A stretch of 58,885 nucleotides of DNA. It comes from Schmidtea nova (Eukaryota). A program made the translations under genes and the position numbers. The notes beneath the pieces were generated by a model. The model was not told the origin of the DNA and ran no database searches. It worked only from the letters and a program-made list of their open reading frames with translations. This document shows positions 13,401 through 50,246 of the stretch, piece after piece. The stretch spans positions 135,413,116 through 135,472,000 of the forward strand of contig CM097883.1 of assembly GCA_044892505.1 (NCBI GenBank), read 5' to 3'. Position 1 is the first letter of the stretch, and each line of letters opens with the position of its first letter.

Positions 13401-13420
13401 ATTTTATCAGTTTACGGCTT

Positions 13421-16218: not shown

Positions 16219-16861
16219 TTAATAAATCAAACAGGAAGTTGACGCAAAACTTTTATTAATTAAACGAGAAGATCTATTCTTTGAAAATGGAGTGATTGTT
16301 TCCTGTAATTCGGATGCGGACAAGGTATTTAACACACTTACTTGTGCTACTAGTTGGATGGCAAAAACCCGTTTCTGCCTACGGCGCCTAGATCCCATTC
16401 GCTTTTTAGTTTTGAAGATGTCCCTGACGAGGTCTCCAATGACTTCGGTTTTTTTTGCGGGAGTCGGGCTTCCCGCATAAATCTTGCCCATATTAGTGCT
16501 GACCGACTGGAGACTTACGGTTGTCTCCCCGAGGCCCATCCATTTGAAGTGAGTGGTCATACATACGATTTCAACTTCTCATCGATAAAAGATCGGGTTA
16601 CTTGACTGAGACAGTTCCTCAGTTCTAGCTTCACCCAGTTGAGTTCAAGATGTACCTAGACGGTCGCCCTCTTTGCCCGATTGGTCAGCAATAATTGCAC
16701 CGCATCTGCGTGAGTGAAAAGTATCGCTTTTCCATCTCCAACTTCTGAGACGTCATTCGGGTGATATCTAGCCGCTAACGCTCAATCCAACGGTTCTGCG
16801 TTATCTAGAAATCTATCTTACACTCGCAACTCCAGGCTTTGGTGACGAGTTTTTCTGCCAT
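16219..16861 (-). pseudogene. ORF B paralog 1 (coiled-coil family)
   Basis: TTTTAG|aaATG start; ..KRYFSLTQMR..LELNWVKLELRNCLSQVTRSFIDEKLKSYV*PL..KRMGSRRRRQKRVFAIQLVAQVSVLNTLSASEL; several stops and frameshifts. Confidence 0.8.
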
Positions 16862-17097
16862 TTCTAAAATAATTTGATGAATGATAAGTTAGTGGTCGCT
16901 AGTGTATTTATGTGACTCTTGCCAACTATCGGAAAAGGTATACATGGTTTGTCGGCTCACTGCGTGGGTCATCGTTCCCTTTATGGGCATTCGTTATATT
17001 TTCTTATTCATGAATTAGATATAAAGACAAATAACTACTAAGCTTTATTTATAAATTCGACATACAGAGTTTTCAAATCTTTCTCTTTATTCTACGC

Positions 17098-17280
17098 TTA
17101 ATTTGGACTCAAACGCGACGACTTTACGAATATTATCATGCTGCCAAATCTGAAGCTTCTTTGTAGAGGATGTTCTTGCTGCGATTCGACCTTTCCGAAA
17201 TGGGCGAAGGGGATTGATCTGGAGAATCCGAGTTCGTCGAATGTCTCCTTTGAAATGTAACCCCATTCTGAAATTTCATG
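17098..17280 (-). pseudogene. ORF A paralog fragment
   Basis: EWGYISKETFDELGFSRSIPFAHFG aligns with YWGHIPRKELRKLGIHAFIPRKAFG of ORF 23620-23970 (shared WGxIxxxxxxxLGxxxxIPxxxFG). Confidence 0.7.
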
Positions 17281-18387
17281 AATTTTCTAGAATTAATATA
17301 ATAAATTGATTTAGTAGACTTCGTTGGGAAATCATCCGTCGATTTGTTTATTTAAATCTTATTGTCATTTCTCCGTTAATCGTACTGAGCTTTGTTGATT
17401 TTTTGGTTCACGAGTGATAAATTACGGATGGATTTCGGTCCAATTTCCTATTTGGTTGATCGAAAATTTCATTATTTCACTCAAATCTTTGATATGTGCT
17501 GCCGTAATTACAGAATAGTATTTTATATCAGCGATTTAAGTTTTGATCATCGATCGAGTTGAGGTATATCATTGTATTTAATAGAGGTATTCTAGAGTCT
17601 CAAATCTCGATTTATCTGTAGAGCTCATCGTCGATCTGAGGCTCATTTGTCAACCATTTCTCGTTTTTCTCCTGGATAGGTTGGATTAGCCTCCTAGACC
17701 TGGCAGGACCCAAGCTTCCGAAACGTCAGATATGCATATAAAAGACGCCCAGGCCTTCTGTTTCAATGTTGTCGCAACTACAACTTGGAACTAGGAAAAT
17801 GAATGCGTTCCTTTGGTGGATCTCTTGTTTGGTTATTTAGCTAATGCAATCAATTTCTCCTCATACATCAAATTATCATCATTGAGTTCCAAAACATGGG
17901 CTCTTTCTCTGGGGAGCAGTTTTGGAGTTGATAAAATTTATAATGTCAAACTACGTGAGCCTCCTCCATAGGCAGATACTCCTTCCCCTCTCCGTTCCAC
18001 TCTCCGTTCAACTTTTCGATGCTGTACAATTTGTGAGTAAAAAATCCCCATGTAAACTTCTCATTCAGGGCATCACCCGTTTCATCCATTCGACTGGAAA
18101 ATTGTTATACACTTCATTCGATAACAACAAAAAAATTGTTATTCATTTCATTCGAATAAAAGATTGGTTGTTCACTCCATTCCCGTGTGCATCCCCACCC
18201 TTCCCTTTATATAATGTGTGGTGACATAATTAATATGGAAAATAAATATTACATTTATAATATTCATAAAATTTATAATATTTATATTTATATTAAATAT
18301 ATATTTTATTATTAAAAAAGAAGAAAAACTCTTGTTTGTTTTTATGTAAATATTTGAAAAATAAACGACATCTTGATTTAGTTAATT

Positions 18388-18825
18388 TTGTTTTTTACAT
18401 TGAATATGAAAATTTTCTTTATGTTTTCCCTAAGTGATTATAAAGTATTTTGTGAAGATAACAACCTTAACAATAAAGTGGAAAATTGCAATGATAATCA
18501 TGAATTAAATCCCGACAATACTAATGGAGACATAAAATACGGCATTTTGCCAAGTCTTCTTCTAAATTTCGAAATTCATACTGAAATGCGAGTTAAAGTA
18601 GCGAGCTTTGATAAATTCGAACCAATAAAAGAAGATATCCTTCCAAGGGAAACTTGCTCAAAAATTACGGATTTGGAATTCATTTGCAAAGATTTCTTAT
18701 TTGAAGCATTAATTCATGCAATTGTTACAATGGCTGAAATGGATCTAATAAATGATGAACAGACTGATATGTTGAGCAGCCCTGCTGAGTTTATCACCAA
18801 TTATAACGAGAGGTGCGATAATTAG
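18388..18825 (+). CDS. Hypothetical protein upstream of ORF B paralog 2
   Basis: 145-codon open frame with natural-looking composition in an AT-rich region; no recognisable motif. Confidence 0.35.
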   Translation: MFFTLNMKIFFMFSLSDYKVFCEDNNLNNKVENCNDNHELNPDNTNGDIKYGILPSLLLNFEIHTEMRVKVASFDKFEPIKEDILPRETCSKITDLEFICKDFLFEALIHAIVTMAEMDLINDEQTDMLSSPAEFITNYNERCDN

Positions 18826-19227
18826 AACAACAGCAGTAGTTCATGCCTAAGCACAGCTACCTTACTCAATGAGATCACACAAAGGGTACCCCCTTTGACA
18901 TCAATTTGCAGTGATATTAAATATAAAAATCGGAAAACATCTAAAGATAATTTCCCAGCCTGCTGGCTGCTATCAAACACAACGATTTAGAAAAACTCAA
19001 TGTCCAACTGTTAGGCGAATAATATACTCCCTAACGATACATGGTCGGACCAACGAGGAAAGAATCGAGGAAAACAATATAATGATGGTAAAAGTCAATA
19101 CCACATAATGCTTTTAATTACTATTCACCATACTGGGGAGCTCTGAAAGTACGACGTAAGGTTTCTACCCACGCAGTGCTATACCACACAGGTCGTATCT
19201 ATCAACGATATTATACATGGTGCAAAG

Positions 19228-19749
19228 ATGAAGATGTCAAGAATGCAAGAGGCCCTATCTAGGACCAAGACAGAACTCGACGCGGTCCAACGGGAACTCC
19301 GAAACTGTTTGAACTCGGTGACCAAGTCGTACATCGACACCGAGTTGCAGGCCCTCATCCGGCCAATAACAGCCCAAAAATGGACAACGACTCAGACCAG
19401 GGATATTTCAATCGGAACCAATGACGAAGTTCCATTTGAGACAGCATCACCAACTCCCCAGCCCACAGTGGGGCCATCTCCAACAACTAGCCGAATCTGA
19501 CCTGGCCCACCCGTACAGCAGCTGATACATTAGAAAGAGACGGTGGGTTCCAAACAAAGGCGGAAATTCGCACGACAATTAAATGCCCAGGTGGATCTTT
19601 TAAATGAACTGACCGAGTTGGAACTCTTGGACGAAATTGTGTTGACTTTGTTGGATGACGAGGGAAGATCCATAGAGGTATTCAAAATCAATAAGTATTA
19701 TCATACAAGCAATAATAAATACCGAATTAATATTTATCTGGAAAAGTAA
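19228..19749 (+). pseudogene. ORF B paralog 2
   Basis: ELDAVQRELRNCLNSVTKSYIDTELQALIRPITAQKW..ISIGTND, then GSKQRRKFARQLNAQVDLLNELTELELLDEIV after a break. Confidence 0.8.
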
Positions 19750-20445: not shown

Positions 20446-20827
20446 AAATGAGGTCACAACTCCATAAAACCGAAAGAGCGCAGTGCGCTATTGTAGACTG
20501 GAGCTCGATGCCGTAAAAATAGAACTGAAAAACTACCGCAAGGCCGTGACCAAGTTATTCATCGAAGAGCATCTCAGAGATCAAATTCGCCCATTCACTT
20601 ATGAGGAGTGTATAGGACCTGTCGAAAACGTAAATAGTCCTACGGAGAAATCAGAAGAGAGAACGAACATCGGCTAGGTAGGACCAGTTACAGCTATCAG
20701 AAAAAATTGTATCAGCGCTAGGCGAAGACGACAAAGACAAGCTTTCGCTCAACAGTTCAACACACAAGATGATCAAATAAATTACCTCTCAGAGCTAGAC
20801 TTGCTAGCTGAAATCGTTCCATTGTAA
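20446..20827 (+). pseudogene. ORF B paralog 3
   Basis: MRSQLHKTERAQ/RLELDAVKIELKNYRKAVTKLFIEEHLRDQIRPFTY..ISARRRRQRQAFAQQFNTQDDQINYLSELDLLAEIVP; frameshift and stop. Confidence 0.78.
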
Positions 20828-21191: not shown

Positions 21192-22411
21192 ATGAATACA
21201 TTATTTTTATTAATTTCCGCGAAACTGCTAGTTTAAGAATTCCAACATCTGATTGGTCAATTCCTAATATAAAAATTTATTTCCTATAATGTAAGTATTG
21301 ATTTTTTTTGTTTTAATTCCTTAATACAGGGTTTCTTAACCGGTGAGGTATACCTCCCTTGGTGAGGTATGTTGAGGTTCCCCGAATCTCAACTTGGTAT
21401 CTTATATAAATAAATAAGATAACACTAGTTAAAAGATTTTATTCAAATATAACAAATACAAATTACCTCAAAAAATTTTTTAAAGATTTACAATGTCGTT
21501 CCTTTAATGTGTAAGTATATATATATGTATGCGTGTGTATGTGTGAATGCCTTCTGAGCTCGATATCTTGTATGCTTGAAATTATTATTTCAATAGTCGA
21601 TAACAACAATGAAATTCTTCTTACGCAAAGATTTTATGGGTGGTTTGACTGAGAAAAACGTTTGTATATATAGTTAATTTTTGTGGTCCTTAACTTCAAG
21701 TGACAAGAGTTGTTTTCTGTCAATAATATTTGTTTTTAATAAACAATTTTTCTATTTTAAATAGTACAAATAATAATTACTATATTTAGGAACATCCCTT
21801 TTACCAGCATCCCTAATGTTTAAAAATGTGATAATTTATATCAGGTTGATACTTATACCCTATTGATTATATTAATCTTCTTGTAATTTATTTCTATCTA
21901 TTTTGAATATTATTAATTATTATTTTGTTTTAATTCGTGTATTCATTCTATGAATTTTTTTTGTTTTTTAACCGCAGTGACCCCTATCTGAAAAAAATAA
22001 AGTTATTAAGTATTATTGGTATTAATATTATAGTTTTTTATCTTTACCATTGATCAAATAAATGTTGGGCCCGCCAAATAGGCTAAAATGACCAAATTAA
22101 TATAAAAGTTTAAATAATAACAAAAAAATAAATACAAAAAATATCAAAAAAGGCTAAATTAAAAATAGGAATAAAATAATAAATAATATTAAATAAATTT
22201 CCAGCAAAAGGAAAATTCAAAAATAAAACGGAAACAAGCAGTAAAGGGGGCCTGAAATAAGAATATTGGAAATTAAATAAAATTATAGTGCAAGTAATTA
22301 ATTAATTACTTTAAAAATTAGGACCACCCAGCGAGAAACCGGAAAAGGAAACAAAATAATATTTAGATTAAAATAAAATAGCAGAATCACTTTGATGGAC
22401 GGTCTGATCCT

Positions 22412-22447
22412 GATTGGTCAATCTGACCAGCCGGATCAGTATAAATA
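22412..22447 (+). promoter_or_regulatory. Inverted CCAAT + TATA core promoter
   Basis: GATTGG at 22412 and TATAAATA at 22440; the same 28-nt offset occurs in the two sister copies. Predicted 5'UTR intron 22620-22732. Confidence 0.65.
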
Positions 22448-23239
22448 CCGATCCGAAAATCCATAATTTAGCATAAATTTTGTGAGACTTAGACTTTGTG
22501 GTAAAGCATAAAATTCTGAGTACTGTAATTTAAAGCATAACTTTGAAGCCTATTTTGAGATAGAAATTCGGAGACTGATTAATTTGATCTTTTATTCGAC
22601 GAACTAACGAATTGGAACAGTAAATTTATTTTTTGTTAATATGTACCATGATTTCGTCATTATAATTTAGTCTAAGTTTTGATGTTTTATTATGATTTTA
22701 TGCATTTAATTTAATTTAATTCATGAATATAGTCATGCTTCCTCGACTGCTCACGCGGCGAGGGAGCCCGAGTCGTCGTTGTGGGGCTTCACGGTCTCAC
22801 ATGGCGGTTCAACCTTTTTATACATTGAACAATTTTTTTTGTAGTTCAATTGATTTATATGACAAACTTACGATAAATGAATTTTTCTGATTACGGTTGC
22901 ACAAAGGATGAGTCGCGAGGAGCAATAGGAAGAGTTTAGAGGGCTGTCTGATGGTGAGGGACACCCAAGGAGTACTGTGTACTCAACACCCGAGAGTTTA
23001 GTGAGACAAGTTAGATTTGAGCCCGAAGGATCGAGGGGGGTGAACTAAAAGTGGAAAGATTTCAATGTAGAATCGACATATTTTGTAAATTCATAAAGGG
23101 CCAAAGTCCGGATTTCAATCAGTTTCACATTCATCTAGTCGAAATAAAATTAAAGTTAAACAAAAAATTCGTAACATACATAAACATGCTTTAGTCGAAT
23201 TCCGATCGCGTCAGACCGCGACGGGATTCTAATCTAAAC

Positions 23240-23376
23240 CTATAAATAGAAATGTAAACCGATCGCTGTAAATAGCGCGGAAATTTAATTAAAATCTTTA
23301 GCCTGATCGCTGTAAATAGCGCAGGAATTTTGGAACTGATTTCGTTTTTTATTATCCTGATCGCTGTACATAGCGC
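23240..23376 (+). repeat. TATA box followed by three GATCGCTGTA(A/C)ATAGCGC hairpin repeats
   Basis: TATAAATA near 23241; 18-mer copies start at 23261, 23305 and 23359, each with a CGCT/AGCG stem. Confidence 0.8.
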
Positions 23377-23509
23377 AGTACGAGTTATAAATACATTATT
23401 CCGACCGCGGTACATCATGGCGGAGCTAATTCGAATTAGTAAAGATTAATTTTTTTGTTAAATGAATAATATTTATGATAAGTTAATTCGAAATAGCACA
23501 TATGTATAA

Positions 23510-23970
23510 ATCATGTACTAACCGAACTCAGGAATTCGGTAGAGGCGATCAATGAAAGGAAAACGACCGACATATTCAAGAAGCTTCCACCTCCGATTCT
23601 GCGTACGATAAACGCACAGGTGTACAAATGGCGCCGAGGATTCAACAGGAGATGCCCATTCTCCATTTGGGCAGATGGAAGTGACCGCATACTGTACCGA
23701 GGAGGCCCAGGTTGGCCAATCACCCGTGAATGGTATTCGAAACACTTCGGCCAAATGATAATACGAATAAACGATACAGAAGGAAGGCCCAACCAACTAA
23801 TCTACTGGGGACACATCCCCCGAAAGGAATTGCGTAAATTGGGGATTCATGCGTTCATTCCGCGCAAAGCATTCGGAATGGAGTGCGATGACAGACAACC
23901 CCGGTTTTCGTGGGCCAGGCTTCGTAGAACCCCTATCAATCAAGAGCTACACATTTTGTTTCAACAATAA
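23510..23970 (+). CDS. ORF A (unknown, Trp/Arg-rich)
   Basis: The frame is open upstream of the track start (HVLTELRNSVEAINERK..) through ..INQELHILFQQ, with AATAAA after the stop. Homologous fragment at 17098-17280. True start uncertain. Confidence 0.55.
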
Positions 23971-24139
23971 CGATCATTTGCGATTTAATAATAATAAATA
24001 GTTTAGTAAAAATCATGGTGTTGGTATTCGTTTTTTTTTGTTTTTGTATTCCATTTCAATAATTCAGAGAATGTTGATAAATCTAAATAACGTCTTAACA
24101 TGAGAACGATATGAAATTTAATCTAGCCAATTTGTAGAA

Positions 24140-24736
24140 ATGAATTTAGAAGCCGCCCAGAAGGAAATAGAAAAAATGTGGCGAATTCGGAGAGCCCAAG
24201 ATAAAGAGTTGGGTTTCATCAAGGAAAACTTAACCAAAGCCGAAGCGCAAATCGCTTACCTGCACAAGAGTTGGTTCGCTCCGGCTCGAATGAAAGAACA
24301 AATCGGAAAGACAGAGCGAGCACAGCGGACGGCAGATGATTTCCGAATGGAGTGGGAGGCCACCAAGATCGAGCTTTGCAAATGTCTCCACTCTGTGACG
24401 GCCTCGTATATCGAACGAGAGCTGAAAGACCTGATCAGGCCAGTAACCTATCAGGGATGGATTGCCGAAAAGAAAGTGGGAATATCAATTGGTACGGATG
24501 TCGAGGGCCTTACCGTAACGAGCGCCGAAACAAAATCGACAATTTGTGATAATACCCCCATCGTCAGTACGCATCAAAAGCGTAAAAGAATTGGCCAAAA
24601 GCGGCGCCATCAGCGAAAACTCTTCGCCCAAAAATTGCAGAGCCAGATTGAAGCATTGCATAAATTATCCGAAGAGGAATTGTTGAATGAGGTGTTTCCT
24701 CCGGAAGGAATTTTCAATGATTTTATAGAAAAATAA
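24140..24736 (+). CDS. ORF B paralog 4, intact 198 aa coiled-coil/basic protein
   Basis: Uninterrupted ORF; TGTAG|aaATG acceptor context; family motifs WFAPARMK, KIELCKCLHSVTASYIE..LIRP, RIGQKRRHQRKLFAQKL..LSEEELLNEV. Confidence 0.75.
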   Translation: MNLEAAQKEIEKMWRIRRAQDKELGFIKENLTKAEAQIAYLHKSWFAPARMKEQIGKTERAQRTADDFRMEWEATKIELCKCLHSVTASYIERELKDLIRPVTYQGWIAEKKVGISIGTDVEGLTVTSAETKSTICDNTPIVSTHQKRKRIGQKRRHQRKLFAQKLQSQIEALHKLSEEELLNEVFPPEGIFNDFIEK

Positions 24737-24942
24737 ATGAGTTTTCACAATGAGTTGATTTTCTTCTTGCTATTTCATCAGCTTATTGATTTAGTAGAAT
24801 AAGGGAAATGAATAATTTTGGGAAACATATATTTGCAAACTTCACGAGATTTTTGCGTAAAGTAAAGAAATGAATTAATTATAATTAATATAACTTCTCC
24901 AAAATTCGGACAAAGTTAATAGTTTGGTGATAAAGCGTAAGT

Positions 24943-25172
24943 CCTTCTAACGGCAGCGATGAACCCGTAAACATAAATGGGGAGTAGTACTAGCAATAGT
25001 ACTCACCTGCCCATCATTGTTTAACCACCTTGCGCATCACCAACTTGATTATCCAGGGAAATAATCAAGGGCGCTTGAGTGTAAAAATTTACGCATTTTA
25101 TGTGTGATCATGGATGAGGATCCCTAGTCATTGTTAGAACATTTTTCAACTAACCCCTCCATGAACCCAGCA
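24943..25172 (+). other. Conserved structured 3' cassette
   Basis: ATGGG-GAGTA-GTACTA(GCAA)TAGTAC-TCACCTG-CCCAT, followed by the CTTGATTAT/ATAATCAAG hairpin and ATCAC/GTGAT pairing; ends CCCAGCA. Confidence 0.75.
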
Positions 25173-26317
25173 TAAATATGAAAAAGGATAAAATAAATAA
25201 CATGATATTATAATTGTATTAATCAGCAAGTAATATTCATTAATACCTATAAATCATGGCGTAATTAACTCCTTTTCACAGATGGGGTATTTTAGGTGTA
25301 TTTTCAAACTCATTGCATTGATATAACAATTTGTTGTATGATATTTTTTTAAAAAAATCTGTCTGATGGAAATTAGTTTACCTATATCTTTTCAAGCAAT
25401 GAATTATTTATCCCCGTTTATTATTATTATTGTCATTATCATTATTATTATTATGAAGTTATTTATTACTATCATTATTATTATAATTATGCATTTTAAT
25501 TGCTCTTAAGAGCATTCTATTTTGAATGACACATTTTGTGTCTTGATTTAGAAAATTGCTCTTCAAGAGAATTTTATGACGCCTCGCGTTGAAAAATAAA
25601 GAAAACCTCTTTACACTGACGCATCGCGTTGAAAAATAAAGAAAACAATTTTTAAATTTGTATTAATTAACCCCTATAGGGCATTTTAATTAATTAAATT
25701 AATTATATATATTTGTATGGGGGGTCCTGACCCGGGATAATATTTGGCGATGACAGTGAATCTGTTGAAATATATTTATAAAATTTTCCTGATGGTAGTA
25801 GTGAATTTATCGAAATATATTTACTGCCATGTACAATTGTTATTTATTGAAAATCTTTTATTGAAAATGACAAAATAAATTATTCCCCAAGCCTCATAAA
25901 AATCATTAAAAAATTACAAAACAAAATACATAAAATAATATTATCAATTGATCAAATAAATCATATAATTGTCATCAATATACAATCAACAGTAAATTAG
26001 AATCACTAAAAACATAATGTCATTGAAGTTGATATTTTCTATTGATTATTGAATTGTCATTGCCATCTGATCCACATGTTTATTTATCCTGTACCTTCCA
26101 TTCCCTACTGTATAATATTTTAATTTTAAAACCCTTATTCTACGCCCATCTTCTAACAGGCATATTAATTTGTTAGGGGAGGTATGAGATTTTGTATATT
26201 TTTGTTATAGTTTTTTAAATTAAAAATTAAAATTATTTTCCAAAAAAAAATTATAATTATAAAAAATTCTTCAAATTTTAAACTTATTTTATTTATCATG
26301 TATTTATATTATAGTAT

Positions 26318-27415
26318 TGTTAGGATTTGGCGTTGTTGGTGAAATGGTAAAAGTTACCAATCAAATATCTGACTCCAAGCGTGCCTTTAATTGACCCCAA
26401 TAACAATTAACACAGGAAACTTTATTGAATATTACAAATATTGTCTTTAACACTGAATTGGCCAAAATCAACAGACCATCAATAATTTATACGGTGCTTA
26501 TTAAGACACGATGGTGAAGAAAAGCACTTTGTATAATCTTGGCTCAAACGATCACTCACCACTGATGGATACAACAATTGGTAATTTGGCTGGTTGTTTT
26601 CTTTATTTGACTTGGATTTACTCGGAACTTTATTCGATTGTAAACTGAATCAGCTCCTGTTGTCTATTTTTTCTGAGTTTCTTTTTAAGTCTTGTCTTGG
26701 GTTTCTGTACAATTCTCTTCACTTCTAATTCAATTATTCTATTTCACACCTTCTCCTTACAATATTCAGTTCACAGTTTCTCTAACAACTTTTGTTTCAC
26801 AACTTCGGTTCCCAATATTTTGTTTCACACTCCTCTAATAACTTCTGTAACAATTTCTTTCTACACTTCTGCTCTCAAATATGCTGTCTAAAATTCTAGC
26901 TTCTGTCTAACTCCTGTCTAAAATTCTCTCACTTCTTTCTAACTCCTGTCTAAAATTCTGATCTCTTTTGCTGCGTCTCTCCTTTTATATCTCGTCACTT
27001 TGTGGCACTTAATATTATCACTTGTTATTCCATTTTTTCCAACATAATTTCCCCTTCATTTTTCCAGCACTGAGTTATCTCTGACAGCCGTCAAGATAAC
27101 CTCTGTTTCCTTTTTGCCACTCCGACTTGTTTGATTTTTTGCCAACTTTATCTCTGACCGGTTGTCGAGATAAGATTCTTGTTGTTGTTTTTCCCAGTTT
27201 TCGAATTTTTCCTGGTTGCACTAATTAATTAGTGCTAACCTTTGTTTTTTTTCCTGTCTGATTTCTTTTTTCTGATTCCTCCTCCTCATTTCTCATTTCT
27301 TTTTATTTCCGTTTTCTTTTCCAAGCTCCTATCAATCGAGTCATTCCCCATGACGATTTCCCCCAAGTAATTTTGTTTATTTATTATATTATTTCTAATT
27401 TAGGTATCCTCAACA
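26318..27415 (-). repeat. 3' LTR (1098 bp)
   Basis: TGTTAGG..CCTCAACA; near-identical to 33942-34609 except for an extra 26662-27107. Minus-strand PPT AAATGGGGAG immediately adjacent (~27419-27428). Confidence 0.92.
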
Positions 27416-28908
27416 TAACTCCCCATTTAAAAAAAATTCGTCCTCGAATTGGTTATTTAATTTGTTCTTATTGTAATACCCCAAAATTCATATTTTCCAT
27501 TAAGGTCTTTCTATAAAATTAATTTATTCACATTTATAGTATAAATAATAGTTAATGATAATAATAATAATATTTACAAAAATACTTATCGTTACTACCA
27601 CAATTGATAATACAGTAATTCTAATCCTAATAATAATAATAATATATCCAACATTACCTTAACAATAATTCATACGATTTAGTTTCAATATCTGTTCTAC
27701 TGATATAGGAAATAACAATGGTACGGAATAGAGTATAATCAAAACGAAGTATATTGTCACTCGTCAAGATTTACTACTTACAATATCATCGCATGTTTGT
27801 GATTATGTATAATAATAATAAAAATAGTAATGCAATACCAATAACAATTGTAATAATAATTATAGTAACAATAACAATAACAATAGTACTAATAATAATA
27901 AAATCAACTAATAATAATTACAATAACAATAATAATAATTACAATAATACCAATAATATTAATAATGATGATAATAAAATTGTTCTAGTAATAACACTAG
28001 TAATAATAATTAATTAATAAATTTAATAAATTGCATTTTAATTTGTTTGCATGTTTAATTTGGAATTTGAATCACAATAAAAATGTTTATGTTACACAAA
28101 TTTGCAATAAATTATTTGATTTATTAATTCTACAGTTTAAAAATAACACGACAAATTTTTAACCGCTCATTTGTATAATTTTTTTTTAAAAATTTTTCAA
28201 ATGAATGTTTGTCAATTTGACATTTATTGCTGCATTTATTTCTGCATTACCGTGTAAAACAGGCTAATACTGTTCTAGATTTTCCAGTTGCACAATTGAC
28301 TATCACAGCTACTGCTTTGAATCACTGATTATGCTTGTGACTTTATGCTGGGCTGACTTTATAGCATACCACACACTGTATATAGCTATAAGTTTAACCT
28401 GTATCTTATGCCAACTTAAATAAATGAGCCTATTCCATTGAAGACATTCACTATACTGCATACATCGAACTGTTTAGTTATTTATCAGATTTTATTGCAT
28501 AAACAATCTGACAAAAATGACAAATTATTTAACTTCTTTTTTTTAAAAATTCAGCCATTTCAAGAAGCTTTTCCCACTAATTTCACTCACAACCTCATAT
28601 TTGCCGCACATAGCAACTACCGAGACTTCTTCAATATTTCACAAACCACGTATGGATTGTGTGCGCTTGATTTCTCCAAAATTGGCGGAACTTATGTGCC
28701 TTAAATGATTTGCTCTATTTTGTTTGTGTGTGACATTCATGTCCAAAAGACAACTTTTTTTTCAATCGTTTTGATTTAAGTGGAAAAATTTCAAATTCTG
28801 TGGCATTTTTATTCTTTGCATTTTCCCAATATTGTCCATCGGAAATTGCCAATATTAAATTCAACAAGCCTATCAAAGCTGCAACAGCTGCTGCCTCCCC
28901 TCGAAACT

Positions 28909-29010
28909 ATGGAGAACTCTCACGTCAAGACCGTCGATGAAGTGCTCAATCATTTCAATGACGATGAAGATGTCGGTTCGATCTACGCATAAGTTAAAAG
29001 ATTATAATGG
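28909..29010 (+). pseudogene. Fragment of the SERCA Ca2+-ATPase N-terminus inside the LTR element
   Basis: MENSHVKTVDEVLNHFNDDEDVGSIYA*VKRL versus recalled SERCA2 [32 protein letters not shown]. The TAA sits at the conserved Gln; similarity ends after ~34 codons. Confidence 0.8.
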
Positions 29011-29596
29011 TAGTTTATACTTTTGTTTTTTTTCGAAATTTTTTTTTATTAATTAATAATGATTATAAATAATAATAATAATGATGATATTAATAATAAT
29101 ATTAATATTATGACAATAATAATACTAGTATAAAATGAAATAATACTAGTAGTAATAATATTAATAATAATACTAACATTAATAACATTCTTGTTAACTT
29201 GAATTTATTTTATGATATTTTTTATTCTTACTTTATTTTATAATTTTAATTATTTACTATTCTGATTTTATTATTTTGTATAAATACATTTACTTTATTA
29301 CACTTACCTACCCACCCTTACCATAGGTGTTATTAATTAATTTAAATTATCCCACCAGCTGGTTACGCCTGTGCTGCAGGCTGATAGGGTAATTGGTTTT
29401 GAGAATCCAAATCCCGAAGTTCGAGATCTGCACTCTGAAAACCCTATAATCAGATTGTTTAATTAAAATTTTTTACACCATTATTATATTAAATATATAT
29501 TTTTATTTATACTTAATTACATATTTATATTACCTGAGTAACGTCCTATCGGACTTCTACTACAGGCGTAATAGTATCGTAATTCCTATTATACTC

Positions 29597-29597
<1 letters not shown>

Positions 29598-29656
<59 letters not shown>
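29598..29656. repeat. (TA)n microsatellite
   Basis: Uninterrupted TA run. Confidence 0.95.
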
Positions 29657-29659
<3 letters not shown>

Positions 29660-33936: not shown

Positions 33937-33941
33937 AATAA

Positions 33942-36720: not shown

Positions 36721-36739
36721 GGCAAGTCAAAATTTCATC

Positions 36740-38056
36740 ATGCGCCAGTGGTCAAAGCTAATTTCTCGAGGCCAAAGTGGTCGAAGATAAATTTCAAGCA
36801 TAAACAGAACTTGTCAAACAACTAGAAGCTATTTGGAGGAAGCGTGTAGAGAAAACCAAAGTTAGAAATTGAATTATGTCGAAAAAAGGAAATATACTGA
36901 GGATTATGTGAAATTTGGATTTACATGCTGTGTTCGTGATAAAATCAAAAAACCCCAATGCTTTCTATGCTCAAATATTCTCTGCAATGATAATATAAGG
37001 CCTTCTAAACTCCTTGAACATTTTACAAAAATGCATTCAAATAATTCTGGAGACTCACTTAAATCGCTCAAGCAGAAAAAAGCTCGATTTCAGTCTTCAG
37101 GAACTTTAACCACGTTAGGTTTTGAATTTAATCAAAAACCACTTGTTGAAGCTAGTTATAAAGTAGCATATCTTATCGCAAAGAACAAAAAGTCTCAAAC
37201 CATCGGTGAAACATTGGTCAAGTCTTGAGCTCTTGAAATGGTGGAAGCTATTCTCGGAAAGCCACAGAGAAATCAGAGTGCGGCAGTACCTCTTTCAAAT
37301 GACGTGATAAGAAGTCAAATTGTGGACATGTCATCTGATATTTTGGATCAACTTATGTAAGAACTGAAGAAAACAACTCTTCCTTTTGGTCTTCAACTGG
37401 ATGAAAGTACTGATGTAGCTCAGTGCAGTCACCTTTTGACTTTTGTTAGATATGCCACCGAAACTGGTATTAAGGAAGAGTTTATGTTCTGCCAGCCGCT
37501 ATTAGCTACTACAAAAGCGGCTGTGTACCAGATAATTGATTATTTTTATTCAGAAAATAATCTTGATTGGAAAGCAAAGTTGGGATTCATATGTGCTGAT
37601 GGTGCACCTTCCATGTTAGGGAAAAAGTCTGGTTTTGGAGCATTGGTACGAGCGGTGGCTCCAAATGTTATGTTTCTGCATTGTTTTCTGCATCGCCATG
37701 CATTGGCATCACGAACTCTCCCACAAAGACTCAAGTCTGCCATGGATATCATTGTCCAAGCTGTAAATTTCATCCGATCTCGAGCTTTGAATCGCAGACT
37801 CTTCAAAATATTATGCAAAGAAGTTGGAGCTACTCATGAAATGTTTCTTTATCACACTGATGTACGCTGGCTTTCACGTGGACGAGTTTTTACTCGTGTC
37901 CTGGAACTCAAAATGGAGATAATAACATTTCTTGGAGAAAGAAAATAAATTGTGTGGAGAGTTTGAAACTCACCATTTTACTGCTTCATTGGCCTATCTT
38001 GCAGATGTATTTTCACATTTAAATGATCTGAATATGTCCCTTCAAGGCTCGTCAAA
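36740..38056 (+). mobile_element. Second Buster/ZBED5-like hAT, 3'-truncated pseudogene
   Basis: RKYTEDYVKFGF..PQCFLC, QLDESTDVAQ, CADGAPSM, HCFLHRHALA, HTDVRWLSRG, LAYLADVFSHLNDLN; stops present; ends abruptly at ~38056. Confidence 0.9.
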
Positions 38057-38564
38057 CTCACAGTACATCCAGAAATAAAATATATAAATTGGAAAAAAAA
38101 TGCAATGCATCAATAAGCAAACTCACCGAGCTGGAAACAAAATGACAAGTATTAAAAATAAAATACAACACAAACGCACATACAGACTAAATTGTGATTG
38201 GTTGACGGAAGACTGCAAACCCCTATATAAGCAGCAGCAAAAATCAGTAGTTGAAGTCGTTTTAGAGAGTGGTTTAGAGAATTTTCAGAGACAAGTCAAG
38301 CCTAATTAGAATCTTGTAAAAGTCATTCTGAAAGTGTCATTGATCATTGTATACCTGAAGCAATTTGTAAATCGGAGTAAATACAGGTATTACTTGGTGA
38401 TTTTCATTTTTACCCTCATGCTGTCTCTTTTTGTTTGTTAAAATCGGTAGGATCGCGCCCCGAAGGTCTTCCGACCCGGCGGGCGACATGGGCCTCTCAG
38501 CGCAGCATCCTGTAGGTGTTGACTCATGCGGCGTTGACTGTAAGTCATTCTAAATATGGGAGGT

Positions 38565-38621
38565 TACTCATCATCCTAAATCATTATGTGCACTGCACAT
38601 AGTGATTTAGGATGATGAGTA
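38565..38621. repeat. 57-nt near-perfect hairpin
   Basis: TACTCATCATCCTAAATCATTATGTGCA-C-TGCACATAGTGATTTAGGATGATGAGTA: 28-bp arms with one T:G pair. Confidence 0.95.
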
Positions 38622-38797
38622 TTAGTAAATGCAGATGATATGACTGGGTTAACGTCACGAACAGAGATTGGGGAGCTACACTAACAGGAATTCCGTATAC
38701 TTCAAGTTTAGGCCGTTCTGTTATCGTGTCCGAAAATTAAAATATCTCCGTAAGAATTCATTGTGGCGATGAGAGAATGTCTGAGATGATTGTGGGA

Positions 38798-39215
38798 ATG
38801 ATGATACAAACTGAGATTCTGCTTGGATAAAGAGGGATTGAAACGTTTTATCAGCAGCGACGAATAAAACTATTGGAAAGTTACATCAGTCGGCAGGCAG
38901 TAGAGCTGGACACTATAAAGAGAACCTGGTTTAGTCCGGAGAGGGTAAAGGAAGTTTACCAGAAACGAGATCGTGCGGAAAGATCTAGCAGAACAGGCTC
39001 GAGAAACCGCTACAGTGAGGCTGGAGTTGAATAATTGTCTAAGGGCCTCCACAAAGGAATTCATCGAACAGCAGCTAAAACCACTGATTAGTGCAAGTAA
39101 CTTTGATCGCTGGGTAACTCCATCCCGACACAATATCGAAACGCAGACCGAGGAAAATGGAAAACCTGCCCAGGATAAAGAAGTAGCAACAGCTAGTTTG
39201 ATGTTTGAAGGGTAA
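38798..39215 (+). pseudogene. ORF B paralog 5 (C-terminus replaced)
   Basis: RRIKLLESYISRQAVELDTIKRTWFSPERVKEVYQKRDRAE/DLAEQARETATVRLELNNCLRASTKEFIEQQLKPLISASNFDRW; closest to the 49692 copy. Confidence 0.82.
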
Positions 39216-39319
39216 TTTATGGAAGGGTAATTGAAGCGAATTGATGCTGTTTTGAAGGACAAATTGGTTGATAGGAATAAAATTTTATTCGAATCATGCG
39301 TTTTTAATGGTTTAAATAT

Positions 39320-39337
39320 TGGTAGTAGAGCGTGGTT
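39320..39337 (+). promoter_or_regulatory. Probable PBS (initiator tRNA-Met type) of the BEL-like insertion
   Basis: TGGTAGTAGAGCGTGGTT resembles the TGGTAGCAGAG..GGTT complement of tRNAiMet; preceded by AATAAA and a degenerate LTR-like end. Confidence 0.55.
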
Positions 39338-39695
39338 CCCATCGGGGCGCCACGCACACTTTGGAAATCTGAGAGCTATCCTGTTAGTATATATTTTTAT
39401 TAAAAAGTCTAATATGTTTTTTGTAAATTTTTATAAATGTTTTAAATTTGTAATTGGGGTATGGATCACCATTCCCTCCAAAGCGCGTCTTGAATGGGAA
39501 ATGAGGTTAGGGAGTAAAAGGCGAAAGTTTAAGTTAATTAATGAAAGAGAAGTGAAAGTTGGAATGGCTTGGCCACCGGATATTGTGAAAGACGGCTGCT
39601 ATGGGCCTCAGCATTCTTTTAAATTCCGGGATAACATTGGTAGGGAAGGTGCTCGTAAGAGGTATCCGCATAGGGTTGGGCGAGCGAGAGAGACA

Positions 39696-41020
39696 TGGCA
39701 GATATTTGTAAAAACATTAACAGGGAAAACTATTACCCTTGAAGTTGAAGCAAGCGACATGATAGAAGATATAATGGGAAAAATTCAGGACAAAGAGGGA
39801 ATACCATCTAGTCAACAAAGGCTTAGGTATAATTACAAACTTTTAAAGGAAGGAAATAGATTGAGTGATTACATGATACATGATAAATCTACTATTCATC
39901 TATCACTGAGATTGTGTGGAGGGAATGATGAGGATGAGGAATTAGAAGAAGGATTGAGAAAAAAGAGGAGTGTTAAGTATAGGTTGACGAGATTAAGAAA
40001 TAAATGGATGAACGATATGCTGGCAGAAGATGCATCACATGTCTTTGATGAATATCAGGAAGCAATGGAAAGTACCATAGTGAGTTTTGAAAGATTGTTG
40101 GACATCAGCAAAAGATTAGGAAGGTCAGATACAACAACTGTGCTAGAAGCGGATTTAAAAGAGATTAAAGAAAAGAATGATAAGGTGGAAGAGCTAATTT
40201 CGTCAAAGGCCCATCAGTCAGTTAGATCGGATGACAACAACACCATTAAAGAGGTAGGTGGGAATGAAACAAAGAAAAGACTCGATAAAATGCAGAAGAT
40301 ACGAATTCAGATTTTTGATGGACAACATAAAGAATACGAAAGTTGGAGAGCTGCCTTCCATACTTGTGTTGATAGTGCACATGGTGAGGATGATGAAAAG
40401 ATGCTACATCTTCGATCATATTTGAAAGGTGAACCGTTAAGGTTGATCAAGAATTTAGGATTTTCTTCAACTGGTTACAAAATGGCAAAGTAAAAGCTCG
40501 ATAAAAGATATGGCGGGGAAAACGAAATTACTTAGCTGCTCTGGAAGATATCGACAGCTTCCGACCCGTTCGTGAAAATGAAATGCTGGAAATAGAGGCA
40601 TTTGTTGGATTATTGGAAACGCTAGAAGCTAGAATAATTAGTATTAGACGAGAGGACGAAATGCAGAACAGTGATTTAATGAAGAGATGCCTTAAAAAAC
40701 TACCCAGCTTGCTGCTATACAAATGGAAGAAAGATGTTAAGGAGGAAAAGGTAACCGAGTGTATCCAAGACTTAAGAAAGTGGTTACAAGATGAAGTCGA
40801 GCTGTTAAGGTCAATCAAAGAAACTCTTTATGAAGTTGGTGATGACAATAGAAGAAACAATTGGAAGAGGCAGGACGGATCGTCAAGAAACCTTGTAAAT
40901 CTAAGACAAGGGAACCGGACGCTTGTTGGACAAGTAGTGAATAGGAATGATAACAAGGCAAACATGTCAAGAAACGGAATAACGGCACTAAAATGTAAAA
41001 TAAAACATCATTTTTTACTG
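39696..41020 (+). pseudogene. Ubiquitin-like domain fused to BEL/Pao-type gag (DUF1759-like)
   Basis: Ub 39696-39923 ([23 protein letters not shown]) in frame with [39 protein letters not shown]; remnant C-K-HHFLLH knuckle near 41000. Confidence 0.85.
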
Positions 41021-42294
41021 CATAGCCCAGGAGTAAAAATGGATGACAGTAAAAAGACAGCCGAGAATCAAAATATGTCAATGGTGACATATCGAGAAGA
41101 ACAGTATGAAAAGGAATATATCGAGAGTTTTGCACCTAAAGCTCAGGAAGAAGTTTTAAGTGAAACTCAAACTGGTGATAGCGATTTGAATTCAAATAAA
41201 AATGAAGATAACTCGAAAAAGGATAATATTGCTGGTGAAATGGTTGACAACTTTAAGTCTGTCGGTATTGCAAGCGAGGATGAAATAAATAATTTTTCAA
41301 ACGAATTAGTGCAAGAAGTAAGGACGGAAATTGAATCTACAATGGTTGTGGAAGATGAGCAGGCAATGAATGAAGAAATTACTGATGAAAATTGCATTGT
41401 CGAACAGAAAATTGTTGAAAATATTAACGATATCGAAGAAAATTATAAAATTAAGGAAAATGGCGGAGAGAATTCCATTGTTGATGAAAAGATGGAGCAA
41501 GAAATATTTGAAAGGTCGAATATTAATAAAAATGATAAAATAGATGAACTGTCTTTGGTAATTGAAACTATTTCTCAGCAAGTGCAAAAATCTGTTGAGT
41601 TTCAGCAGTCACTCCAAAATTCATTTGAAACAAGTAAAGACAAAGGTGAAAAACTCATGGGAGAATTAAAAAATGTAAATTTGATAAACGAAAATTTAAA
41701 TGATAAAGATGAATTCGGAAATAGGATATAGATCTTGGAATTTGAAATAGAAGATCTTGAAATAAGATAAAAACGACTGAATTAGAATATAAAAGCGAAA
41801 TTAAAGAGTTAGAAGTAAAGTTAAAGAATTTGGCTGAAACTATAGAAACGTTATCAGTGGAGATGAGAAATGTAAATGCCATTAACGATAAATTGGCAAC
41901 GGTAAATTTGGAAATAAAAATGTCCATATGTGTGAGGATGAGTATCCAAGATAGTATAAGAGGATTAATGGTCGAAGAAAAATTCAAGGACAAAAATAAG
42001 TATTGGCCGAAATGGAAAAATAAAGTTAAGAATCAGAAGGTTCCCCCCCAGAGATGAATGGGTCAGTTGATCCGCTAGAAGCGACCAAAGCTTGCTTCTA
42101 TCTGAGCCTATGTGTGCGTTGCATGTGTGGAGTCGCGTCCGTGTGCGGTTTATAACTTAAGTTAGTTTTATTCGTGTAGTGAAGGTGAAAAGTGAAAAGG
42201 CTTAATGCTAAAAATGAAAAGGAATAACAATAAAAAACACTTGGGGTTGACACAAGGGTGGCCTTTCATTTGAAAATTAACCTCGCTTCCAACA

Positions 42295-42480
42295 AATGAG
42301 GGAATAGTAGCCGCAATGTTGCTCACCTGCCTCATTATCCTACAACGTTGATACAGTACCAACATGGTAAGCAATTAGGGGCAAGCCATGGGTATCAACG
42401 GGGAGATGTTTTTATGTTGGTGGGACTACTCACAACATCACAAAGTAAGTCTCAGTTGAAAATCTACCAACACTCCAGCA
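42295..42480 (+). other. Conserved structured 3' cassette
   Basis: AATGAGG-GAATA-GTAGC(CGCAAT)GTTGC-TCACCTG-CCTCATT; crossing helices CGTTGATAC/GTATCAACG and ACCAACAT/ATGTTGGT. Confidence 0.8.
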
Positions 42481-47465: not shown

Positions 47466-48846
47466 ACCATCAATCAAATTTCAAATAAATATTTTGTTGG
47501 GCCAGCCAAATCGAGCAGCATCTGAAAAATAATACACAATCAATAAAATAAATCTACAAAAAAGAACAACAAAATAAATTACCAACACCAAAAAGTAGCA
47601 AATGAGCGGTAACATCTAAAAGAAATAAAGCATTAATCAGAATAACATAAATCTTAAAAACTCACCCATGCGAATCAGATAAAATCTGAAAATGACAACA
47701 GGTGGGCGGACATCACCGAAGACCTGAAACAAAAATAAAATAAAAATTAAATCATACCAAAATAAACTTACCGCATGATTAAACAAACAAATCATTGAGT
47801 TGAGTTAGGCAGCAAAAAGCCGACAAACACAAAAGAATGACCAGACATACACACATACTCGATGCTGATTGGCCAGCCAACAACACCGGTTTAGTATATA
47901 TACTGAAGTCAAATCAGTATTGGTAATGTCATTTTTTACTGAGTGTGAACTTATCGTCACAACTTGTAAACAACTTGGAAGTGGAAATAAAAGGTAAATT
48001 CGAGTTGTGTTCTATATTATTATTTTAAACCCTCATAATCATAATTATTAATGATGTTAAAATCAATAAGGATTTTCCGGAGGCCTAACAGCCTGACGGA
48101 TTCTTGGCCTCTCGGTGCAACACATTCTCATGTGAGGTACCGATGCGGCGGGACCATAGGTGTTCTAAATATTTAGTGATCGGGAAGGGGGTAAGTGCAC
48201 ATAGGATATCTAATAACATCACGTCGATCGTAAATTCAACAGGAATAAAGGCAGTCTCGTAAGTATGATATATGTCATGGCGAGGGTTAGACAAGGGGTA
48301 GACGCATGAGGTAGGTAACATCAAGTCTATTGAAGTTTTTTTTGACGAGCGTAGAGGCAATCAAAGACATATTTGTTAGACCCGAAAACCTCGAAGACCG
48401 GAATGACATGCAGAAACGGGGGTAATGATAAATCAACCGCGCATTTCAATCATATACAGCTAGCCAGCGACCAGTATAATGAATAAGCCCGTATACAATA
48501 GGGGATCACCAAAGTTCCCGAACCCTGATGATCATTGGTAGTTAGATAACGAATGACAGGGAATGTCGATTAAGATAAATCTACGAATAATATTGTAAGT
48601 TGCGATATGCTGCTGTGTGTTGAAATAATGTTGAACTAAGAGCGGAGTGAAATGAGATTAACCAAGAATGAGTGGCTAACTACGGCCTACACCACATCAC
48701 CGTCGCTCGTAATGTAATCCACGCAATGAACTGCTGAGGCCTACTAATAAATGACCAATAATCAAGTAGGCTGATCAATATATATATACTTACGATCAGA
48801 AACAGTAGCTGACGAATAACCTAAGCACTCTTTCGTTTAGAGCAAA

Positions 48847-49482
48847 ATGGTCAAACTCGAAAAGCATACGGAGACACCCGCAGTCTCGCCGCCCGCGACA
48901 AAGGAGGGTCGCATCTTCCGAAGGAGACGACATACCCGATCTATCGTCAAGCAGGATTCTAAATCCGAAATTCAAGGGGAGAAGGACGCCCCACGACAAA
49001 TCGTCGAGATAGCGCGCCGACATCTGCGTCGATGAATGCGACGGCACATGAGTGTAGCCGCAAGCATCCCAGCCTGCGCGTTCCAGATACAACTTCGATG
49101 GGAGGGAGATGCCAATTGGGCGTCATCGTCGAACCCTCCGGAACGAAAATCTACCCAATGGTTTTATCAGTTCCTGGACGAATCCAATCAGCCCCGATGG
49201 TTACTAAGCTCGGAAGCGATGACAGGAAAAGCATTATATCAGCTTGGATACTTGCTGCTGGACAGGCCTCGGTGTGGCGACACTGGGGAAGTCCAAGTCT
49301 ACCCAAACGCTCCCGGAAGCGTCACGTTGGATCACCATCCGGAGCCCAAAGATCTTCGCCTATGGGAGGTATTCATATACCAGGGTAAGTTGAGCTGGCA
49401 CCCAGCCCCGGAGTTATACCACGAAACTGGGATCCGCCGAGATGAAAATTTCGCCGACCAGGAGCTACGGTCGTTCTGTTAA
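48847..49482 (+). pseudogene. ORF A-position gene, 211 codons with one in-frame TGA, Arg-rich N-terminus
   Basis: Track ORFs 48847-49035 and 49036-49482 are one frame split by TGA in HLRR*MRR (CGA>TGA plausible). TATATATA at ~48780 flanked by CTGATC/GATCAG; TTTAG acceptor 6 nt before the ATG. Confidence 0.6.
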
Positions 49483-49691
49483 TCAAGAGAAGGCCACACT
49501 CAGAAAATCAAAGGATCCAGTTCACCCCTGTTATAATTTAAAAATAAACGTTTAGTTGAATAGTGTTTCTGGTTTTGTTTTCGGAGTGTATGTGACGAAT
49601 ATAGGAGTAAAAATGGTTGATTGATTGTAGGAGCAAGACTAGAGAGACGGATAGATGTCCGCTACACTAATTAACGTCACATTTTATAGAT

Positions 49692-50246
49692 ATGAACGAG
49701 AACACTATCCGAGACTACAAACAGGAAGCACGCGAACACAAGGCACGCTCCAAGGTACTCGAGAGCCGCTTACATCAATTAAGCGCAGAACATCAAAGAA
49801 TAAAGACAACATGGTTCAACCCCGAGAGGATTAAAGCCATTTTACAGGCGAGGTACCGAGCAGAACAGGTTGCCGACGAGCAGGCGAGAGAAGTCGCCGC
49901 GTTAAAATTGGAATTAGCCAATTACCTAAAAGTCTCGACGCAAGAGTTTATTACGGAACAGTTACGCCCAATGATCAGGGCAAGTACCTTCAACAGATGG
50001 ATAGACTCAATAGCGGTCACTACCAGTACCCAAACCGAAACTGAAACAAATGTCACAACAACTACCGAGTCGATGAGGATAATCCCGGAAGGCTCAAAGC
50101 GGACAAAGCGACGAAACCGCCTCGGAGCCAAGAAACGTCGAGCCTATGCCGAACGCCTGGGCATCGAGGTTGATCTGCTCAGTGGACTCTCCGAGCAGGA
50201 ACTATTGAATGTGATCCGACCGTCGGTGTTGTTAAATTACAAATAA
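49692..50246 (+). CDS. ORF B paralog 6, intact 184 aa coiled-coil/basic protein
   Basis: Uninterrupted ORF; TATAG|atATG; WFNPERIK, LKLELANYLKVSTQEFI..MIRASTFNRW, RLGAKKRRAYAERL..LSEQELLNVIRP. Confidence 0.78.
   Translation: MNENTIRDYKQEAREHKARSKVLESRLHQLSAEHQRIKTTWFNPERIKAILQARYRAEQVADEQAREVAALKLELANYLKVSTQEFITEQLRPMIRASTFNRWIDSIAVTTSTQTETETNVTTTTESMRIIPEGSKRTKRRNRLGAKKRRAYAERLGIEVDLLSGLSEQELLNVIRPSVLLNYK

Follow-up and report, generated by a model that had tools for sequence, protein, structure and literature searches.

The closest described relatives of the elements considered here are the planarian Burro/GYPSM1 elements, which are ~29 kb long, number thousands of copies and encode gag, env and pol in one giant frame, where env falls between gag and protease, along with CCHC knuckles, ankyrin repeats and MATH/TRAF cargo (PMC6431247). 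The elements described below are alike in these features, and their LTRs contain a small gene, ORF B. CERV, from the gypsy element Cer1 of C. elegans, is likewise a lineage-restricted Ty3/gypsy accessory protein; it is made from a spliced mRNA and is required if the genomic RNA is to be exported, its proposed role being the export of the unspliced form (PMC10309623). A further comparison is with HIV Rev, HTLV Rex, MMTV Rem and HERV-K Rec (PMC11998498, PMC10309623). Proteins of this class are small and have an arginine-rich helix, as is predicted for the ORF B product.

The window, a 58,885-nucleotide stretch of Schmidtea nova DNA, holds six ORF B loci within 34 kb, all of them where a sequence-only reading had placed them (Table 1). 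With the protein from 24140 as tblastn query, the other five loci are matched at E values of 1.6e-19 to 4.7e-9, and a profile from 41 genomic copies matches all six (best pieces iE 7e-71 to 3e-13). As had been stated, two copies are intact, with stop-free translations of 198 aa (24140) and 184 aa (49692); the remaining four have stops, frameshifts or truncations. The motifs then picked out coincide with conserved columns of the 41 representatives, among which F46, R60, L79, L83 and T119 are invariant and W45, P48, K52, I99, R100, W107, R150, G152, R156, R157 and R159 are at least 90% conserved. These motifs have been kept while the DNA diverged, as was also remarked: blastn at E<1e-3 aligns no pair among the six.

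The clustering within 34 kb, by contrast, is not special, there being thousands of candidate copies genome-wide. Searches of the same genome gave 8918 and 9436 first-look candidates, figures that are not copy numbers because only 150 of each list were scored. The six window copies fall in different LTR lineages and are therefore independent insertions, not local duplicates; local tandem duplication is ruled out by the different lineages together with the copies' own target duplications. They are not a host gene cluster but lie in, or are remnants of, ~3-kb LTRs of a giant retroelement of Burro type, a label that denotes architecture and domains and not identity to the Burro1-4 reference sequences. 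Two of the copies stand in complete solo LTRs with TG...CA ends and 4-bp target duplications, and the other four in broken remnants that belong to further LTR lineages. The LTR 3' element is present in 11 of the 13 closest fetched relatives of the fragment at 19225..19653; for that at 20480..20821 homology, the sole basis, suggests an LTR origin. The possibility that an element fusing ORF B to ubiquitin lies at 39.2 kb was considered and rejected, since among 40 scored hits the junction is seen in the window only.

Table 1. LTRs, genes and candidate regulatory signals in the window
Feature	Position	Strand	Remarks
Solo LTR, 3127 bp, TG...CA, TSD ATTT	47495..50621	+	Contigs of 3/4 runs join across empty site; flank itself a repeat
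Reverse CCAAT + TATA box, predicted LTR promoter ~0.4 kb into LTR	47867..47902	+	
Splice-donor-like site	near 47994	+	LTR 47495..50621
ORF A, ~210 codons	48847..49482	+	One in-frame stop in this copy (LTR 47495..50621)
ORF B, open, 184 aa	49692..50246	+	Basic patch three residues shorter than in relatives
YAG acceptor 2 nt before ATG of ORF B 49692..50246		+	
Covarying hairpin with internal loop	50445..50486	+	In conserved 3' 230 nt of LTR
Solo LTR, second lineage, 3110 bp, TSD TAAA	22063..25172	+	
Reverse CCAAT + TATA box, predicted promoter	22412..22447	+	LTR 22063..25172
ORF A frame, 157 codons open	23497..23970	+	ATG absent where relatives start
ORF B, open, 198 aa	24140..24736	+	YAG acceptor 2 nt before ATG
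Covarying GNRA hairpin	24976..25017	+	LTR 22063..25172
Old LTR remnant	15937..17266	-	Broken ORF B 16219-16861 (stops, frameshift); partial LTR 3' element 15995-16119
ORF B fragment, two stops	19225..19653	+	LTR end not found nearby
ORF B fragment, one stop, long branch	20480..20821	+	Nothing closely related at E<=1e-14; no nearby LTR end
Disrupted LTR	38196..42480	+	Promoter 38196-38231; ORF A region deleted
ORF B 5' part, frameshifted, in disrupted LTR	38849-39213	+	
Unrelated repeat inserted in disrupted LTR	from ~39234		
LTR 3' end of disrupted LTR	42264-42480	+	Hairpin at 42296

It is close to certain that ORF B is a gene of giant Ty3/gypsy elements of Burro type and that it is contained entirely in their 3.0-3.3 kb LTR. 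Among 20 fetched loci, 12 are TG...CA units with matching 4-bp duplications, six adjoin a primer-binding site (PBS) or the 3' internal flank and two are unresolved. One element measures 29.3 kb, and the LTRs are 3.0-3.3 kb long with 4-bp duplications; in three paired elements the LTRs differ by 1, 1 and 11 mismatches, the target duplications are shared and a PBS is present that matches tRNA-Pro(TGG) genes of the same genome. Full-length elements flanked by such LTRs number five; all encode gypsy pol and an env of the fusion-glycoprotein kind, and those scanned for them also gag, ankyrin and TRAF. In one of them a single frame of ~4500 codons holds CCHC, Monjiviricetes_fusion, RVP, RVT_1, RNase H, rve and ankyrin domains, with RING and TRAF/MATH in separate ORFs. 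Pfam finds the same internal domains in elements of two other LTR lineages, an order of gag, env, PR, RT, RH, IN in three elements of three lineages, and the ankyrin and MATH/TRAF cargo; two of the three Pfam-scanned elements have stops or frame breaks. In the scanned frames Pfam at E<=0.01 gave no BIR, BCL2-like, Ubi2 or dUTPase-like domain; some of these are described in the review as detected only with HHpred (PMC6431247). The earlier suggestion that ORF B serves a mobile element as an accessory protein holds.

A second gene, ORF A, stands beside ORF B in every LTR lineage examined; it and the LTR location had both escaped the sequence-only reading. ORF A is a conserved LTR gene of no known family, blank against Pfam and PHROGs. 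Its structure model (pTM 0.65) gives a best E of 0.83 in the PDB, a best Z of 3.2 in VIA and a best E of 0.014 with TM 0.14 in BFVD; the modelled fold is possibly new, blank fold searches not in themselves establishing novelty. Between two elements dS is 0.73-0.78 for ORF A/B versus 0.14-0.23 for the internal genes and, LTR swapping being observed within a lineage, the LTR cassette appears to recombine apart from them. Between lineages ORF B identity is 28-42% versus 92-99% for RT. Swapping is not needed to account for ORF B at 30% identity on such similar RT, because between lineages the synonymous sites of RT have reached saturation or come close to it.

Purifying selection acts on ORF B (dN/dS about 0.1), mainly in shared lineages. 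Pairwise dN/dS is 0.095 (47 sequences) and 0.101 (24 sequences), far from the value near 1 that would have spoken against the past purifying selection proposed earlier, and IQ-TREE gives an omega of 0.14-0.18. In the 47- and 24-sequence sets pN/pS is 0.13 and 0.09 for shared variants versus 0.80 and 0.44 for singletons, which are thus far less constrained (Fisher P 7e-26 and 1e-12). Among 27 copies found by non-coding DNA alone, shared pN/pS is 0.12 and divergence at the three codon positions is 0.10/0.07/0.31. It could be asked whether ORF B is a host or host-domesticated family, or whether its solo LTR copies are kept by host-level selection, as ORF B has stayed open in 24 of the 30 copies that were located through non-coding DNA, singleton pN/pS is below 1 and singleton stops occur at one quarter of the synonymous rate. 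Either is very improbable: every well-resolved copy sits in an LTR with its own target duplication, singletons are the less constrained class, and the samples favour young copies and are not large enough to split private from lineage changes.

The ORF B protein is predicted to form helices at 3-44 and 48-95, a disordered linker at 113-145 (pLDDT<50) and a further helix at 149-174; the packing of the helices is left undefined by the model because its pTM is 0.32. A 16-column patch holds 7-11 R/K in all 41 representatives, and the median net charge is +11. The arginine-rich helix and the long predicted helices suggest a nucleic-acid-binding or oligomerising protein. No known family was recognised at the outset, and none has emerged since. 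Pfam yields no consistent family (the best has 4/41 members at E values of at least 0.009), and the profile against the PDB gives seven weak coiled-coil rows, none of Rev class. HMMER over 1.84 billion protein representatives and word-index searches with ORF A and with ORF B at near and longer lengths are blank, as are viral and metagenome contigs and the ESM Atlas (best 0.83 and 0.76); the collections searched are mostly microbial gene calls, so that absence from other flatworms is not shown. The ORF B fold has no match in BFVD (best E 0.74). Nor does ORF B show similarity to the Gag of its own element (hhalign probability 0.4%).

A basic helix in every representative, the high net charge and long predicted helices could also belong to a protein that binds DNA at the LTR promoter as its transactivator or repressor and dimerises through its coiled coil, and protein and promoter would then travel on one cassette that recombines apart from the internal genes. 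Foamy-virus Tas and HTLV HBZ are comparable LTR-promoter regulators. Weak bZIP_1 matches do occur in three of the 41 members (best E 0.023), but at the level of generic coiled-coil noise, and the basic patch lies C-terminal to the coils with ~30 disordered residues between, unlike bZIP; this role is unlikely.

The reading we prefer, tentatively and at somewhat under even confidence, is by analogy an RNA adaptor of Rev/CERV type that serves the unspliced RNA of its own element and is itself translated from a spliced mRNA of the LTR promoter. Transcription would start ~0.4 kb inside the LTR, with splicing of a short leader exon to the ORF A or ORF B acceptors. A CCAAT/TATA module is found at 23 of 41 representative loci, with both genes downstream; YAG lies 0-6 nt before the ORF B ATG in 34/39 versus a control rate of 16%. 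A donor-like site follows 70-260 nt after TATA in 22-23 of 23, versus 7, 9 and 13 of 23 in control windows, by a lax pattern composed after the sequences had been viewed. No splice joint was found in contigs of four runs, the kind of contig being unrecorded. ORF B might oligomerise via its two long helices, clamped in some lineages by dynein light chain LC8 at a TQT motif.

This LC8-like TQT lies in the disordered linker of 20/41 representatives; the others have IGT, VST, CGT and similar, the Thr at +1 being present in 41/41, and many TQT peptides fail to bind LC8 (PMC6607443). The motif would also suit an anti-silencing factor, an LC8- and RNA-binding decoy against piRNA-guided co-transcriptional silencing, given that LC8 dimerises the Drosophila PICTS silencing complex (PMC7861614) and that nuclear SMEDWI-2 represses BURRO1 (PMC8532177). 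The divergence of ORF B far outpaces that of RT, as would be seen in an arms race, yet selection within lineages is purifying and not diversifying and the canonical Gln is absent from half of the lineages, which makes a decoy distinctly unlikely.

In the adaptor reading the arginine-rich helix would bind structured LTR RNA, the best candidate being a covarying internal-loop/GNRA hairpin near the LTR end. Its variable pairs are kept in 50-54 of 56 distinct variants versus shuffle means of 24-40, although the rows were picked by pattern, the shuffle ignores relatedness and some slid controls are high; the loop is GNRA in 50/56. Whole-region folding z-scores are only -1.97 and -1.10, and nothing in Rfam matches the LTR at 47.4-50.8 kb. 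The hairpin is adjacent to the PBS, and its function may be in priming, in dimerisation or, with Gag, in packaging and not in ORF B binding.

ORF B could also be a cytoplasmic or particle cofactor, acting in RNP transport or in chaperoned copying of an unusually long 5' repeat region, since a promoter at +0.4 kb would give a first strand from the PBS of ~2.7 kb. The layout of coiled coil, LC8 site and basic helix is that of mononegavirus phosphoproteins and is described for HPIV3 P and Ebola VP35 (PMC8615749), and the element's env is a Monjiviricetes-type fusion protein. The Foldseek rows linking ORF B to phosphoproteins, however, are noise (E 4.6-7) and Gag already has CCHC knuckles; a cofactor of this kind is rather unlikely.

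With an RNA adaptor, the >25 kb intron-containing genomic RNA would not be retained in the nucleus and could be translated and packaged. Recombination between LTRs would then leave solo LTRs that retain both genes and decay slowly, which would explain the solo LTRs and remnants of the window. Against the adaptor, the basic helix would suit DNA binding or a nuclear localisation signal just as well, TQT is present in fewer than half of the representatives, there is no sequence match to a solved Rev-class protein and no viral fold match, and conservation between lineages is far higher for the hairpin than for ORF B. Nor is there support for a nuclear export signal: the leucine-rich pattern in 30/41 C-termini is inside the shuffled range (mean 24, max 32).

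Solo LTRs are usually regarded as non-coding leftovers; those described here retain a predicted promoter, splice signals and two genes, and purifying selection on both genes has lasted as long as synonymous sites took to saturate between lineages. Were they expressed, thousands of loci would provide element proteins without gag-pol. A bolder and on balance doubtful proposal is that Burro LTRs are self-contained two-gene regulatory cassettes. In it ORF B, as a new coiled-coil protein that binds RNA, ORF A, with its possibly new fold, and the RNA target of the two would travel as a unit and recombine apart from gag-pol; thousands of solo LTRs would still be able to express them and could act in trans on full-length elements as regulators. 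The system offers a direct test, namely nuclear exit of a >25 kb intron-containing retroelement RNA, and RNAi against Burro is already in use in planarians (PMC8532177).

The present elements differ from Burro/GYPSM1 in that TRAF has an ORF of its own, placed 3' of the polyprotein, and in their LTR-internal genes, which the review's section on Burro/GYPSM1 does not mention (PMC6431247). CERV is a 517-aa protein of the internal region with Cys-loop and G-like domains (PMC10309623), whereas ORF B is ~190 aa, predicted to be helical and inside the LTR. With the Rev class ORF B shares a predicted spliced mRNA and a candidate structured RNA in the element, but no homology, and its export signal is not above chance; it has long coiled coils and an LC8-like motif, and Rev has neither. 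The sag gene of MMTV, which lies in U3 and was reportedly described by Choi in 1991 as the ORF of the 3' LTR, is likewise a protein gene inside an LTR and so present twice per provirus. It encodes an unrelated protein, and the two genes described here instead sit downstream of the predicted promoter, on the R/U5 side, with splice acceptors, so that a solo LTR would hold a whole transcription unit.

The sequence-only reading had placed six copies of ORF B, the gene for a coiled-coil protein, in the window (listed below), and a profile from 41 representative genomic copies detects all six. Their homology, claimed there too, is borne out by tblastn, in which the two intact proteins find the remaining copies, and the divergence of their DNA by blastn, which detects no similarity among the six. 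Genome-wide, 8918 and 9436 first-look candidates were found in the 1.25-Gb assembly, with 150 scored per search. A tree of the 41 representatives plus four window fragments puts the six copies in different lineages, two of the fragments lying on long, unsure branches.

ORF B copies and other repeats of the window
Positions	Feature	Remarks
16219-16861 (-)	ORF B copy	
19228-19749	ORF B copy	LTR origin suggested by relatives, 11/13 with an LTR end
20446-20827	ORF B copy	LTR origin suggested by homology
24140-24736	ORF B copy, intact, 198 aa	in solo LTR 22063-25172, equivalent to the 47495 unit
38798-39215	ORF B copy	
49692-50246	ORF B copy, intact, 184 aa	in solo LTR 47495-50621
23267-23372	three spaced TGTAHATA (Pumilio-type) motifs	part of the 22063 LTR; the 47495 lineage lacks them
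39234-42290	separate multi-copy repeat inserted into the 38.8-kb LTR	long ORFs with ubiquitin domain and weak DUF1759 match
26315-34609	probably another LTR element	minus-strand ORFs, weakly matching Retrotrans_gag and RNase_T exonuclease, between direct repeats (26315/33939 and 27103/34281)
8249-8870	perfect 311-bp tandem duplication in gypsy-like pol fragment	may have arisen very recently or be an artefact of assembly
5712-7415, 51940-52791, 12178-15524, 35271-37948	hAT-like and mariner-like transposases	also fragments of putative Polinton-like and piggyBac-like genes

Twenty fetched loci aligned to the window have sharp common ends at 47495 and 50621. Of these, 12 are TG...CA units whose 4-bp flanking duplications match, in six the LTR adjoins element-internal sequence and two are ambiguous. 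Within the window there are two solo LTRs, plus four remnants. The gene lies inside an element's LTR, and the earlier proposal of a mobile-element accessory protein stands; nucleic-acid binding or oligomerisation stays a prediction.

Genomic matches that lie in pairs at a spacing of ~26 kb represent the two LTRs of a full-length element. Three such elements show 1, 1 and 11 mismatches between their LTRs (and, in the last, 20 gap positions), target duplications common to both ends and a primer-binding site complementary to tRNA-Pro(TGG) of the same genome. One carries zf-CCHC, Monjiviricetes_fusion (E 1e-71), RVP, RVT_1, RNase H, integrase and ankyrin domains in a single frame of ~4500 codons, with RING and TRAF/MATH on separate ORFs, and the set of internal domains is identical in two elements of other LTR lineages. 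They match the description of Burro/GYPSM1, the giant gypsy-like elements of planarians, in PMC6431247, which makes a planarian the probable host. The element class is already known. Paper searches turned up no account of genes inside Burro LTRs, and Grohme 2018 and Jurka 2007 may show such ORFs; in plant elements, a review passage (PMC7264820) places extra ORFs in the internal region. At locus L023, internal sequence flanks one LTR on both sides, marking tandem elements, and LTR pairs 17 kb (L031/L034) and 43 kb (L039/L040) apart, with target duplications in common, are deleted and enlarged elements. The tRNA-Pro(TGG) pattern has 1116 matches genome-wide, and a long 308-bp tandem array of these primer tRNA genes lies at C1:459.6 Mb (L231).

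Past purifying selection, proposed from the conserved motifs, is supported. ORF B has a pairwise dN/dS of 0.095 across 47 distinct sequences (861 usable pairs) and of 0.101 across 24; for ORF A, the second gene of the LTR, the values are 0.22 (36) and 0.23 (20). All are from single-alignment-piece copies, which excludes frameshifted ones; the IQ-TREE omegas, in the same order, are 0.14, 0.18, 0.37 and 0.33. Constraint on ORF B is far stronger on shared variants than on singletons (pN/pS 0.13 versus 0.80 and 0.09 versus 0.44 in two sets). Among 30 loci found by non-coding DNA, ORF B is open in 24; the 27 left after removal of two frameshifted copies and one LTR partner give a pN/pS of 0.12 for shared variants and 0.53 for singletons. 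The pattern fits selection while the element replicates and decay once inserted, singleton values below 1 leaving some doubt; that selection on the host keeps ORF B is very improbable. Between LTR lineages, identity is 92-99% for RT-RNase H, whose synonymous sites are saturated or nearly so, 54-84% for gag, 51-78% for TRAF and 28-42% for ORF B. Two elements within one lineage have ORF A/B dS of 0.73-0.78 versus 0.14-0.23 for internal genes, and recombination therefore moves the LTR cassette independently of the element body. At L217 (C2:302.45 Mb), the env region differs little from its counterpart in another lineage (dS 0.27-0.30), yet RT is saturated against the same lineage, which indicates exchange of the env module.

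In 23 of the 41 representatives a reverse-CCAAT/TATA module is present ~0.35-0.4 kb into the LTR, the rest being cut short or unmatched, and ORF A and ORF B are therefore both downstream of the predicted promoter. That ORF B is a transactivator is rather unlikely. A donor-like site, by a lax pattern, follows the module by 70-260 nt in 22-23/23 loci (7-13/23 in control windows). ORF A (150-210 aa) comes next and is kept across lineages, with 13-22% identity between types and conserved Trp, Cys, Gly and Pro columns. YAG precedes the ORF B ATG by 0-6 nt in 34/39 representatives (control 16%), two without Met at the anchor being omitted. The final 230 nt are conserved across lineages and contain a hairpin with an internal loop. 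Its six variable pairs each occur as two or three pair types, and 50-54 of the 56 distinct variants preserve them, where shuffling gives means of 24-40, on rows picked by pattern and with statistics that ignore their kinship; the loop is GNRA in 50/56. RNAalifold finds two-sided changes at 7/12 pairs, and overall folding z-scores are weak.

AlphaFold predicts for ORF B two confident helices (3-44, 48-95), then a short one, and, beyond a disordered linker (113-145), helices at 149-185 (pTM 0.32). The basic patch is present in 41/41 representatives, and export-signal patterns show no excess over shuffles. The linker opens with a motif of invariant last Thr (TQT 20/41, IGT 12/41, others 9/41); the LC8 anchor is TQT with Asp/Glu/Pro at +2, many such peptides being nonbinding in the account of PMC6607443. 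Dynein_light has 61 matches in the genome, ~20 of them near-canonical and clustered on C2 (L208-L215). ORF B has no similarity to the element's own Gag. A particle or transport cofactor is an unlikely identity for it, and an anti-silencing factor a quite unlikely one. As the sequence-only reading had it, no recognised family fits: searches found no family, homologue or fold match. ORF A is predicted to form a compact alpha/beta domain (pTM 0.65), and fold searches with it gave no match.

The best-fitting role for ORF B, tentatively held, is that of an export adaptor for unspliced element RNA, because a small, basic, helical protein, predicted to be spliced, stands beside a covarying internal-loop hairpin. 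With a leader crowded with splice sites, the element would have to export unspliced RNA of >25 kb. In Cer1, a gypsy element of C. elegans, that problem is solved by the accessory protein CERV, as described in PMC10309623, and in retroviruses, in the account of PMC11998498, by Rev, Rem or Rec; ORF B may be their analogue.
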